Source: Escherichia coli
GTDB taxonomy: Bacteria > Pseudomonadota > Gammaproteobacteria > Enterobacterales > Enterobacteriaceae
Length of the DNA stretch: 64,000 nt
Direction: 5' to 3' (one strand)
Assembly (NCBI RefSeq): GCF_024298765.1
Contig: NZ_CP101210.1
Position numbers: made by a program. Each line of letters starts with the position of its first letter. The stretch's first letter is position 1. Shown here piece by piece: positions 3,001 to 6,000 of the stretch.

Positions 3001-6000
3001 CAATCATCAGAGATATTAACCAGGATTTTTATTGTTTTGTGATATCAGCAGTGCAGGTATACAGACATTAAAGTAATCAGGTTTATTATAACCACCTTTA
3101 CAAAGTTGTATGTGTTTATAATTTAAGGATTTTAATGCCAGTCGTTTTCTGCTGCTTAAATTGAGGTCGCATATTATACACAATAATATTCCTGGCATTA
3201 TTAAATTAATAAAAGAGGATTCTTATCACTGTATTTTTGCTCCGCACTACCGTTCTGGCTGGTGAAATAATAATACAGGAGAATAACAGAATGCTTAAAA
3301 GACGTGATGCTTTTTTAAAGAAAAGCGCGCTGGCAGTGAGTGTGGCCCTGCTGCTCTCATCTCAGGCTTTGGCTCATAAAACAATTACTGATTCAACGGC
3401 GGGTATTATCTGGATTGATAATGGCACTCAGTCACTTGAAAGTGCAAGTGTGATTGACAGAAATGGAAATGCTAACGATGGTGGTAGTGTTACTGGAAAA
3501 AACTTTGCTGTTGGTTCCGATGCAATAATTTGGGATGCGGATAAATCCATGGCAACAGGAAATAAGACAGCTGTTTTTAATGCAGACAACAGTGTCGCTC
3601 TGGGGTATGGCTCTCAGGTGAATGGAGAAAGCAATGTACTTTCTGTAGGGGCCGGTCCTTCAGGATATGGATTTTCAGTTGATGGTGCACCGGAAACCCG
3701 CCGGATTATAAATGTTTCAGATGGTGTTAAGGATAGTGATGCGGCCACAAAAGGACAGATGGACAACGCCATTGCAGGTGCTGTACGGGTGTCGGGGGAT
3801 GCCCTGCGCGGTGAGATAGGAGCTGTCTACCGTGATGCTGTTTCTCATACTGACAGTCAGGTCACAGCAGTACGTGATGAACTGAAGGCAGAGGGAGACA
3901 GTCTGCGCGGTGAGATAGGCGGTGTATACAGAGATGCCCGTGCTCATACTGACAGTCAGGTTACAGCAGTACGTGATGAACTCAGCAGGGATATTATTGC
4001 AGGCACATCGGCAGCGGTGGCGTATACGGATGCATCTTCTCTTGCTCTTCAGGATGAAATAAAAGAAAAAGCGGATGAAACAGTTCAGGTTTCCCGGGCT
4101 TATACAGATAAAAGTGTACGGGATGCCCGTAAAGAAGCGAAAAGCCAGGCAGAACATCTCAGCGATGTGCTTGTGAAGAACAGGGCGCAGACGGATGCAG
4201 CAATAGCCTCAAATACAGCAGCGATAAGGAATAACAGTCATCGTCTGGATTTGACGGAAGCCTGGCAGAAGATGGCGACAGAGAGAATGAATAATATGCA
4301 GGAGCAGATTAAAGAGAACCGGAAGGAGTTAAGGGAGAGTGCAGCCCAGAGCGCGGCACTGGCAGGTCTTTTCCAGCCATACAGTGTTGGAAAATTTAAC
4401 GCGACAGCAGCCGTTGGTGGTTACCGTGATGAGCAGGCCATTGCGGTGGGCGTGGGCTACCGTTTCACAGAGAATGTGGCAGGAAAAGTTGCAGTTGCTG
4501 CAGGTGGGTCATCCGCATCGTGGAATGCTGGTGTGAATTTTGAGTTCTGACAGGTCAGGATTTAGATATCTGTCCCGGGGGGAGTCCCCCGGGATATAAT
4601 GAGGTACAGAGATGCTGGATATAATCCTGGCGACGAGAGATATTTATTTTGAAAAAGCCCTGCGAGAGATATTTGGAACCGTAAGCAGTCGAATCAGATA
4701 TATAGAAGATGCCATATCAGACAGAAGAAGGGTGCAGTCAGGCAGGTCATTCAGATATTATTTTGTATTCTGTGATGATGAGTATACAGATATTGTTCGT
4801 ATTCTTTTTACCGGAGAGGCCTGCTGTATTCTGAATAAGTCGATGCTGAATCTGAGAGCGGCCGGAGGTGTGTTGACGCTGGAAGAGCGCAGAGCGGTAC
4901 TGAACCGGTATTACAGAGGTTTAAGTATTGCGGAGATTACAGAAGAGACGGGGCAGAATGACAAGACGGTATACGGTCATCTTCGTCGTGCACTGCAGCG
5001 GTCTGGATTCCGGAAGGGGCGTTTTATAAAGGGGAGAGAAGCGGCGGGGGATTCAGGTGTTGAATAATGTATCTTATATTGTGATATCGGTGCTGCTGCT
5101 GTTATTTTTTGTTGTATTTGTGACGAATGGTTAAGAATAAAACATGAGCTGGTGATTATCAGGACAGGTTGCTTGTATATGAAGATAACAAAGGTGGCAT
5201 TTATTTTTGCGCTGTCAGTGTGGAGTGTTGCTGTGATATGTCTTTTATTATTTGTACTGGTTGTTCTGGGATAGCCATAGTGAAATAAAAAGCTGTCTGA
5301 ATTAAATTATTTTGCACACATGTTTTAATTCTGCACTGAATTCAGAATGGGTAATCAGTGACCGTCCTGACGGTCACTTTAAAGAAAAGGCATTTACACA
5401 GAATTACTGACAGGCTCTGGCTGTCATTCGGCCGATGAACAGTTGCTTAAGACAGGATTATCATTCCCTTCCACCAGATTGGCTTTTTTACCTTTTGTGT
5501 ACAGTTTATATGAGTATCTTTTATTGATGGCTTCGTAATTGGCTCCGGAGGCCATTTTCATTAGCTGCATAGGTATCATCTCATCCATCTGATTAATCAC
5601 TGCATATGAGTTCCCAGCAGTGGTGTTGATATAGACCACCTCCATTGTCTTATTTCCATTACAGACATAAGCTGTTTTTGAGATTTCTTTTGTGGCAGCG
5701 GAGGATACCATACTGTTGCTAACAAGAATGAGTGCAAGGACGGGAGAAGAGTATTTTTTCATAATAACTCCTTCTGTAGGTTAAAAAAACAGGTGTTTGA
5801 TCAGAATTATATTAATAATTCATTCATCAGAAAAAAAGGTTTTTGTTATAGCAATAATAATGAGCACAATTGCTTGTGAAACTGGTGCCATTTTACGGTT
5901 GCTTAGGAGTGCTGAAACTGTGCCTGTTAGGGCACAGCTGGTGTGGTGGTCTCAGTACGGAACAATTTGAAAACCAGAACATCACTTAGGCTTGTGTCCA

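Follow-up and report, generated by a model that had tools for sequence, protein, structure and literature searches.

A YadA-like adhesin gene, a linked gene for a DNA-binding regulator, a trailer holding two mini-ORFs and the relic of an IS256-family end together make up the explanation that we prefer, by a modest measure, for an accessory block on the chromosome of Escherichia coli. The core of the block spans positions 3291-5418 of a 64,000-nucleotide stretch of contig NZ_CP101210.1, referred to here as the window, and is edged by insertion-sequence (IS) debris. From 5' to 3', the block comprises the adhesin gene, a 61-bp spacer, a gene for a 151-aa helix-turn-helix (HTH) protein, a T-rich trailer and the IS256-family end (Table 1). 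The window matches E. coli chromosomes at 100% identity, and in these RefSeq annotates a YadA-like protein, a sigma factor-like HTH protein and a c-type lysozyme inhibitor, and the locus is overall mostly ordinary. The first-pass annotation had described a 151-aa protein downstream of the trimeric adhesin, a hydrophobic 31-aa ORF behind it and a perfect 10-bp-stem hairpin; all three were found, the 151-aa protein being identical to its RefSeq counterpart.

Table 1 Features of the accessory block and of its convergent neighbour, in window coordinates.
Feature	Position	Strand	Description
YadA-like trimeric autotransporter adhesin gene	3291..4550	+	419 aa from RefSeq start; RefSeq-annotated
GC-rich spacer hairpin	4571..4596	+	11-bp stem, no U tract; in the 61-bp adhesin-HTH spacer
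151-aa orphan DNA-binding protein gene	4612..5067	+	Identical to RefSeq WP_000884153.1
Sigma-70 region-4-type HTH	4870..5001	+	Residues 87-130; Pfam PF08281 (Sigma70_r4_2), 30.9 bits vs cut-off 25.7
Candidate small ORF 1 (ORF1)	5057..5134	+	25 aa, MLNNVSYIVISVLLLLFFVVFVTNG; GTG start
Candidate small ORF 2 (ORF2)	5179..5274	+	31 aa, MKITKVAFIFALSVWSVAVICLLLFVLVVLG; 40 aa if started from GTG at 5152
Variable non-coding tail	5275..5349	.	Ends in IS256-family insertion hot spot, TSD tcagaatg 5342-5349
Perfect palindrome (hairpin)	5357..5378	.	AGTGACCGTC-CT-GACGGTCACT; 10-bp
IS256-family (IS1414-like) right-end relic	5358..5418	+	Last ~7 transposase codons and terminal inverted repeat ~5389-5417/8
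c-type lysozyme inhibitor (MliC-like) gene	5424..5762	-	Convergent neighbour, outside block; NCBIfam PRK13791, 155.7 bits vs cut-off 127

Among complete E. coli genomes, approximately 3% harbour the block, and many of these are of poultry origin; the trailer was detected in 183 of 5426 complete genomes as well as in 17 metagenome contigs. The unit of adhesin, HTH gene and trailer, at 98-100% identity, was observed in at least four distinct flanking contexts, and the HTH gene adjoins a YadA-like adhesin gene in all genomic contexts examined. Synteny with other genomes stops exactly at 5417/5418, the DNA beyond 5418 being different, and the majority of rearrangement breakpoints lie 3' of the ORF2 stop. 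Sequence comparison characterizes the adhesin-regulator block as mobile, with an IS relic as its right edge. The mliC gene is absent beside the block in four of the loci (L005, L006, L008 and L010). The module may also be decaying, because IS elements interrupt the HTH gene at two loci (L031 and L032) and an IS3-family element splits ORF2 in strain SFE8. Two published loci were compared with the block. The island of the tkt1 paper (PMC3349570) proved to be a different island, and the eYadA gene of APEC TW-XM, which is followed by genes for a lipoprotein and a 67-aa TM protein, was rejected because both the adhesin and its locus differ (PMC12955052).

The adhesin was assigned through its Pfam YadA_anchor match (60.3 bits, cut-off 22.7) and its similarity to the YadA anchor structure 2lme in the PDB (E 1.7e-17); its length differs among strains, from 369 to 546 aa. 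The RNA of the spacer hairpin folds at -23.6 kcal/mol (z -2.1), the sole SNP of this hairpin (4582) falls in the loop, and IS421 is inserted at the hairpin in L007 and L014. A search for repeats common to the HTH region and the sequence upstream of the adhesin gene, as possible operator sites, returned nothing convincing.

The 151-aa gene is preceded by a GAGG Shine-Dalgarno motif 7 nt 5' of its ATG, and RefSeq already names its product "sigma factor-like helix-turn-helix DNA-binding protein". We are close to certain that the HTH, which forms the C-terminal third of the protein, is of the region-4 type. The first-pass annotation had left the choice between a region-4 and a LuxR-type HTH. Profile searches upheld the former, since Sigma70_r4_2 exceeded its curated threshold, and gave nothing for the latter, GerE (PF00196) being absent among the Pfam matches at E<=1. 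The sole LuxR/FixJ/NarL-type lead was the UhpA model (E 0.033, 14 bits vs 258), and Pfam returned no match to a receiver domain (Response_reg). The protein also matches phrog_3512, 'sigma factor', with an E value of 2.3e-4. ECF sigma models align to the HTH part only and remain far under their cut-offs, TIGR02937 for example scoring 19 bits against 42.9 and covering only residues 87-129. The protein thus resembles ECF-type sigma-70 factors in having a region 4.2 HTH whose spacing from the C-terminus is similar, but differs from them in that region 2 was not detected (no Sigma70_r2 match in Pfam at E<=1), and it should not be named a sigma factor. The N-terminal domain had been described as unassigned and still is: its 86 residues matched no Pfam family at E<=10, no PDB chain and nothing in NCBIfam. 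A weak match to phrog_6585, a PHROG of unknown function, is the only lead for this part, and an AlphaFold single-sequence model of the 151-aa protein (pLDDT 37) was too poor for judging the fold.

Relatives of the protein were sought by word-indexed protein search, by phmmer on representative proteins and by tblastn on plasmids and phages. These searches returned E. coli and Salmonella copies only, at least 88% identical and mostly 94-100%, and phmmer against 1.84 billion representative proteins found no distant homologue below approximately 88% identity. Past the close copies there were merely generic HTH matches (E ~3e-4). The coding sequence carries 6 SNPs in 456 nt; purifying selection is not demonstrable, because 6/6 are non-synonymous, the changes being conservative.

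Judged by linkage only, a regulatory tie between the 151-aa protein and the adhesin is an even proposition. The protein would be a DNA-binding transcription regulator rather than a sigma factor, co-expressed with the adhesin, and its target may be the adhesin promoter, or else genes whose activity must be matched to adhesion. Some adhesin operons carry a regulator gene at their 3' end, examples being MrpJ of Proteus mirabilis, which is of the Xre type, and PapX, SfaX and FocX of uropathogenic E. coli, of which PapX is of the MarR type. The likeness lies in a small HTH gene that directly follows an adhesin gene in the same orientation and moves together with it, and by analogy such linkage suggests that adhesion is coordinated with other functions, such as motility. 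However, MrpJ and PapX bear no sequence relationship to the 151-aa protein, and their systems involve a fimbrial operon whereas the adhesin here is a trimeric autotransporter. If the protein does control the adhesin or provide a link to motility, it would represent a virulence regulator that is lineage-specific to poultry-associated and extraintestinal E. coli.

The trailer would be transcribed together with the regulator gene, because no terminator lies between them; a terminator scan called no terminator-like site between 5067 and 5357. Its two candidate ORFs are both strongly hydrophobic. The GTG start of ORF1 overlaps the stop of the HTH gene by 11 nt, with GGGGGA located 6 nt upstream, a position suited to translational coupling to that stop. 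The best 19-residue Kyte-Doolittle window of ORF1 scores 2.85, 17 of its 25 codons have T at position 2 (8-10/24 in the other frames), and no SNP was found across 25 copies. ORF2 lies in the same frame as the HTH gene, its frame being open from the GTG at 5152, and it has a basic N-terminus, a Kyte-Doolittle window of 3.01, T at codon position 2 in 20/31 codons and a mediocre ribosome-binding site (AGG, 10 nt from the ATG). From its sequence, each frame looks as if it encodes one predicted transmembrane helix. The two frames would be, or would lately have been, translated into small inner-membrane peptides; that at least one mini-ORF is translated at present is possible, at somewhat less than even chances. 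ORF2 is present in same-locus copies, with alleles V6A, V28I and F10L, while the search for homologues found none outside the same locus and none more than approximately 2% diverged. As a point against, a 79-codon frame is open on the antisense strand as well, and a six-frame open-frame test gave only p 0.08.

It is unlikely that the trailer is instead a plain non-coding, T-rich 3' UTR, or junk separating a gene from an IS scar, with ORFs that are a by-product of composition. The composition itself (34% GC, 40% T) is in keeping with such an origin, as are the lack of named homologues or annotations, the fact that RefSeq PGAP calls neither ORF (ORF2 is called solely in unnamed Logan/ENA predictions) and the ORF2 polymorphisms, all of which are non-synonymous. 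Composition, however, rarely produces this arrangement. Forward ORFs were counted in dinucleotide-preserving shuffles of the region 5041-5355 if they encoded 20 aa or more and reached 2.5 or more in a 19-residue Kyte-Doolittle window; two or more such ORFs appeared in only 0.08% of shuffles (P=0.0008), and at least one in 4%. Furthermore, T occupies codon position 2 in 65-68% of the codons of ORF1 and ORF2, and this periodicity is frame-specific, with the frame switch located exactly between both ORFs. These two results argue against the suggestion of the first-pass annotation that the ORFs may simply be AT-rich sequence. Variation points in the same direction: the interval 5057-5274 has 3 SNP sites in 218 nt, a density near that of the HTH coding sequence, against 6 in the 75 nt of the tail at 5275-5349 (Fisher p 0.01), so that its polymorphism is below that of the tail by a factor of approximately six.

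The frames could also be unexpressed remnants of a longer ancestral gene, which we judge improbable. The ancestor would have encoded a 220-aa regulator anchored in the membrane by its C-terminus, or else a two-TM protein of ~73 aa translationally coupled to the regulator gene, and a stop codon, or frameshifts at runs of five G (G5, 5046-5050) and six T (T6, 5105-5110), would have disrupted it. The HTH frame indeed remains open for 68 codons past the TAA at 5065, up to the ORF2 stop (p 0.005, shuffles), ORF1 and ORF2 differ in frame by one T, and coding-like periodicity would linger in a young pseudogene. In addition, a GenBank draft with G4/T7 (L010) encodes a continuous 220-aa protein spanning the HTH, ORF1 and ORF2 (P0002), and a second draft has a 225-aa version (P0030). 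By contrast, G4 or T7 occurs in 0/183 complete RefSeq genomes, where the best identity to a G4/T7 query is 97.9%, and G5/T6 is found in 17/17 metagenome contigs and in all accurate data. The fused 220-aa ORF in GenBank is probably a sequencing artefact, because the assemblies of the G4/T7 drafts hold many homopolymer frameshifts; long-read homopolymer errors at the HTH-trailer locus can thus give rise to a spurious-looking 220-aa fusion protein. That SNPs are sparser in 5057-5274 than in the tail speaks for present-day constraint, and there is no outgroup from which an ancestral state could be inferred. Phase variation, or a 220-aa fusion protein, through the G5/T6 tracts was rejected, with G4/T7 in none of the 183 complete genomes and none of the 17 metagenome contigs.

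In the explanation that we prefer, the trailer is followed by IS-derived DNA. The hot spot at the end of the variable tail has received independent IS insertions and junctions, and the segment 5358-5418 is very probably the relic of an IS256-family end and not a functional element. With 80-90% identity, positions 5355-5426 match the right ends of IS256/IS1414 elements in over 1000 E. coli records, and IS homology begins at approximately 5357, so that ~61 bp are left, with no transposase gene and no left end. In alignments made by eye with IS1414 and with an IS256-family relic of O157, the palindrome is homologous to an imperfect one among the final codons of the IS1414 transposase gene (..GDRLDGHF-stop); the relic shares these codons together with the palindrome, and also the terminal inverted repeat GGCATTTACACAGAAT..CAGGCTC. 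The palindrome is perfect over 10 bp here and over 9 bp in the O157 relic, and it is intact in all copies of the relic. The hairpin, which had been grouped with the regulator and the peptides, thus belongs to the 3' end of an IS256-family element, and a perfect hairpin, however striking, can be simply such a relic.

We consider it rather unlikely that this hairpin works as an intrinsic terminator in both directions, ending transcription of the convergent HTH and mliC units. As RNA it forms a 9-bp stem with a 4-nt loop, GC-rich and stable on both strands (-14.1 kcal/mol; z -2.3 on the plus and -3.1 on the minus strand), it lies between the convergent genes, 290 nt past the HTH stop and 46 nt past the mliC stop, and its conservation among the relic copies is perfect. 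However, the stem is followed by UUUAAAG on the plus strand and GAUUACC on the minus strand rather than by a U tract, the terminator scan was silent, the palindrome was inherited from the 3' end of an IS transposase gene, and mliC is not the neighbour of the hairpin in other genomes. As a natural feature of that gene end, the palindrome would here be a relic marking the end of the block, and its effect on the convergent transcripts would at most be that of a weak element for RNA 3' ends or stability.

A functional role for the peptides has a slim chance, namely that the mini-ORFs are genuine small membrane proteins made from the regulator mRNA, with ORF1 coupled to the stop, and that they act on the adhesin or on the orphan protein with its sigma-4-like HTH. 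They could form a minimal membrane tether or antagonist, loosely like a sigma/anti-sigma pair; alternatively, they could be a helper or toxin that ties adhesin expression to the state of the envelope.

Highly improbable is a type I toxin-like membrane peptide, ORF2 or ORF1, controlled by an antisense RNA from the same 300 bp, the first-pass annotation having raised a type I toxin-like element: shortness, hydrophobicity, the basic N-terminus of ORF2, an intergenic setting in an IS-rich accessory region and one weak sigma-70-like promoter match antisense to the ORF2 start (minus strand, 5183-5155) would suit it, but beyond hydrophobicity nothing distinctive was found, with no toxin family match in Pfam or NCBIfam (PADLOC PDC-M02A was non-significant, E 0.033, 11.9 bits), no Rfam family match in the trailer, trailer RNA that folds no better than shuffles (z -1.8 on the plus and +0.09 on the minus strand), a promoter scan below chance (3 sites vs 6.3 expected), no terminator for an antisense RNA, and a single-copy locus in which IS disruption is tolerated without loss of the remaining block. 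Known small hydrophobic proteins of enterobacteria comprise the type I toxins Hok, Ldr, Ibs, ShoB and TisB and inner-membrane proteins of the YohP type. The candidates differ from these in that they match no family and that neither an antisense RNA nor a structured leader was found, but they are like both groups in being 25-31 aa long, intergenic and unannotated, with one predicted TM helix, and as proteins they would enlarge the little-explored group of small membrane proteins that accessory islands encode.

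The window is E. coli chromosomal DNA, and the sequence between positions 3000 and 6000 was 100% identical to that of E. coli strain 104 and many further isolates, mostly from poultry. The block formed by the adhesin gene, the helix-turn-helix (HTH) gene, the T-rich trailer and an insertion sequence (IS) relic is preceded by a PTS/transketolase cluster and fragments of IS elements, and is followed by nanE, one PTS gene and one gene of the rpiR type. A frameshifted transposase fragment about 860 bp upstream of the adhesin gene, which we read as IS66-family TnpA, accompanies the block in several genomes. 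The adhesin promoter is presumably located in this AT-rich 860 bp (31-35% GC near 3000-3300).

Features of the adhesin-HTH locus and their positions in the window
Feature	Position	Orientation	Source or remark
Transposase fragment	2327-2440		Frameshifted
YadA-like family protein (adhesin)	3291-4550		RefSeq annotation
Direct repeats in adhesin gene	3804-3982		Two of 80 nt, 99 nt apart, 88% identity
Intergenic hairpin	4571-4596		Between adhesin stop and HTH start
TATAAT	4594-4599		Perfect match
Sigma factor-like helix-turn-helix DNA-binding protein	4612-5067	+	WP_000884153.1, 151 aa; RefSeq annotation
ORF1	5057-5134	+	25 aa, GTG start
ORF2	5179-5274	+	31 aa; frame open from GTG 5152
Tail	5275-5349		
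tcagaatg	5342-5349		8 bp just left of relic
Palindrome (hairpin)	5357-5378		
IS256-family relic	5358-5418		
C-type lysozyme inhibitor	5424-5762	Convergent	RefSeq annotation

The first-pass annotation had assigned a sigma-70 region-4-like or LuxR-type HTH to the C-terminus of the 151-aa protein. The former assignment is correct and already reflected in the RefSeq name, with Pfam Sigma70_r4_2 scoring 30.9 bits at residues 87-130 against a curated threshold of 25.7, whereas no GerE/LuxR match was obtained in the profile search. Weaker Pfam matches were to other three-helix HTH families, and NCBIfam sigma-factor models aligned only at residues ~80-130, all far under their cut-offs; profile searches for sigma region 2 and a receiver domain found neither. 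The N-terminal domain is indeed without assignment, residues 1-86 matching no Pfam family at E<=10 and no PDB chain, and the sole lead was a weak match of residues 3-75 (4612-4836) to phrog_6585 (E 3.3e-4), a family of phage proteins of unknown function whose profile spans 156 positions. An AlphaFold single-sequence model was unusable (pLDDT 37).

Two protein searches, one word-indexed over 5.8 billion clusters and the other a full phmmer run over 1.84 billion representatives, recovered E. coli copies 88-100% identical, full-length or fragmentary, and one Salmonella fragment; beyond these copies, both searches returned generic HTH matches only (E ~3e-4), and tblastn against plasmids and phages gave no match. 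The protein is thus an E. coli-restricted orphan with sigma region 4 only. All six SNP sites in its coding sequence are non-synonymous, though conservative, and in some strains the gene is split by an IS (IS21 at 4728-4733 in locus L031, an IS3-family element at 4621-4626 in L032), which together disfavor strong constraint. In older annotations only a C-terminal product of 74 aa is called (P0045), and this holds also for loci with an intact 151-aa ORF (L030, L033).

The short hydrophobic ORFs reported after the HTH gene are present. Positions 5068-5355 have 34% GC and 40% T, so hydrophobic codons are expected, and the trailer had been suggested to be simply non-coding AT-rich sequence. In dinucleotide-preserving shuffles of 5041-5355, however, forward ORFs of at least 20 aa with a 19-residue window of Kyte-Doolittle (KD) >=2.5 occurred at least once in only 4% and twice in only 0.08%, which argues against that reading. 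In ORF1, 17 codons out of 25 have T at position 2, and in ORF2 20 out of 31 do, compared with 8-11 of 24-30 in other frames; this frame preference changes between the two ORFs. ORF1 opens with a GTG so close to the end of the HTH gene that the two share 11 nt, and GGGGGA precedes that GTG by 6 nt, an arrangement of the coupling type; the ribosome-binding site of ORF2 is weaker. Across 25 independent copies (loci and 17 metagenome contigs), we counted 3 SNP sites in the 218 nt of 5057-5274 versus 6 in the 75 nt of the tail (Fisher p 0.01), and structural breakpoints fell mostly past the ORF2 stop, with the exception of strain SFE8, where an IS3-family element is inserted at 5187. Conversely, every ORF2 polymorphism (V6A, V28I and F10L) is non-synonymous, which counts against translation or function. 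Also on that side, neither peptide matched a family or had a homologue outside the same locus, and no divergent copy was found on which conservation could be assessed. We conclude that the coding-like structure of the trailer, with two predicted TM helices, is genuine; ORF1 and ORF2, non-random by these statistics, are candidate small membrane peptides or, alternatively, a young pseudogene.

That the trailer represents the remains of a longer gene is a rival we keep alive because the HTH frame, after its TAA, remains open for another 68 codons and closes only at the stop of ORF2 (p 0.005, or 0.05 when any forward frame is counted). In one GenBank draft (L010, 5001-5663, GCA_028598215.1), the G5 run at 5046-5050 appears as G4 and the T6 run at 5105-5110 as T7, so that the HTH protein and both small ORFs are fused into one protein of 220 aa (P0002) called 'sigma factor-like HTH', and a second draft assembly gives a 225-aa version (P0030). 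G4 or T7 was found in no complete RefSeq genome (best identity to a G4/T7 query was 97.9% in all top matches), all 17 metagenome contigs carry G5/T6, and the fused proteins come from assemblies with many further homopolymer frameshifts; the fusion is therefore probably a long-read assembly error. Phase variation through G4/T7 was rejected, as these variants were absent from the complete genomes and metagenome contigs checked. For the proposal of a type I toxin-like element, hydrophobicity is the only support: we found no toxin family match for either ORF, no Rfam match in the trailer, no significant folding on either strand (z -1.8 and +0.1), and a single weak antisense promoter-like site, the scan total being below the shuffle count.

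Copies of the adhesin-HTH-trailer unit, 98-100% identical, occur in differing contexts, namely beside mliC/nanE (this window and L004), IS256/ISL3/MFS/aerobactin genes (L005 and L008), dolP/sodC (L006), or yaiO and glycosyltransferases (L010), which supports a module moving as a unit; out of 5426 complete E. coli genomes, 183 contain the trailer. A role for the HTH protein as an adhesin-linked regulator is a reasonable inference from this organization, although the block is too young for linkage by itself to prove regulation. The adhesin gene varies more than the HTH gene and contains 99-nt internal repeats, its product ranging from 369 to 546 aa between strains, and these length differences probably come from copy-number change of the stalk repeat. 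The GC-rich intergenic hairpin (11 bp, -23.6 kcal/mol) lacks a U tract, and the TATAAT overlaps its 3' arm; IS421 sits in this region in strain SFE8 (L007), and L014 shares the breakpoint.

The perfect hairpin after the ORFs exists, but it matches IS256-family ends and is hence a relic rather than part of a regulator/peptide unit. A sensitive BLAST of 4540-5430 gave over 1000 matching records from other E. coli for 5355-5426 only, and in each of them the match fell where an IS256-family/IS1414 transposase gene ends. In IS1414, ..GGTGACCGCCTGGACGGTCACTTCTGA GAAAAGGCATTTACACAGAATCTTAAACAGGCTC encodes the final residues GDRLDGHF-stop, then the terminal inverted repeat; the counterpart in the window is AGTGACCGTCCTGACGGTCACTTTAAAGAAAAGGCATTTACACAGAATTACTGACAGGCTC, and a relic in O157 carries the palindrome as a 9-bp perfect version. 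From these comparisons, 5358-5417/8 is the last ~61 bp of an IS256-family element whose truncation lies right at the palindrome. Matching of other genomes stops exactly at 5418, and the relic therefore marks the right border of the block. The RNA stem of the hairpin is stable (-14.1 kcal/mol); neither strand has a U tract after it, and a terminator scan gave no call. The tcagaatg motif has been struck anew by IS256-family elements at least three times. The L005-type insertion there has an 8-bp target duplication, and L012 carries a full IS1414 in + orientation at this motif; in L006, the palindrome itself forms the junction with an IS1414, which is in - orientation.

The published eYadA adhesin of E. 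coli ExPEC XM (PMC12955052) is not the adhesin of this block but another trimeric autotransporter, encoded at a separate locus. Downstream of eyadA (L028, 4175-5899), we observed genes for a lipoprotein of 140 aa and a single-TM protein of 67 aa, whose start and stop overlap, so that this locus resembles the present one in having small membrane proteins, which are candidates here, downstream of the adhesin gene.
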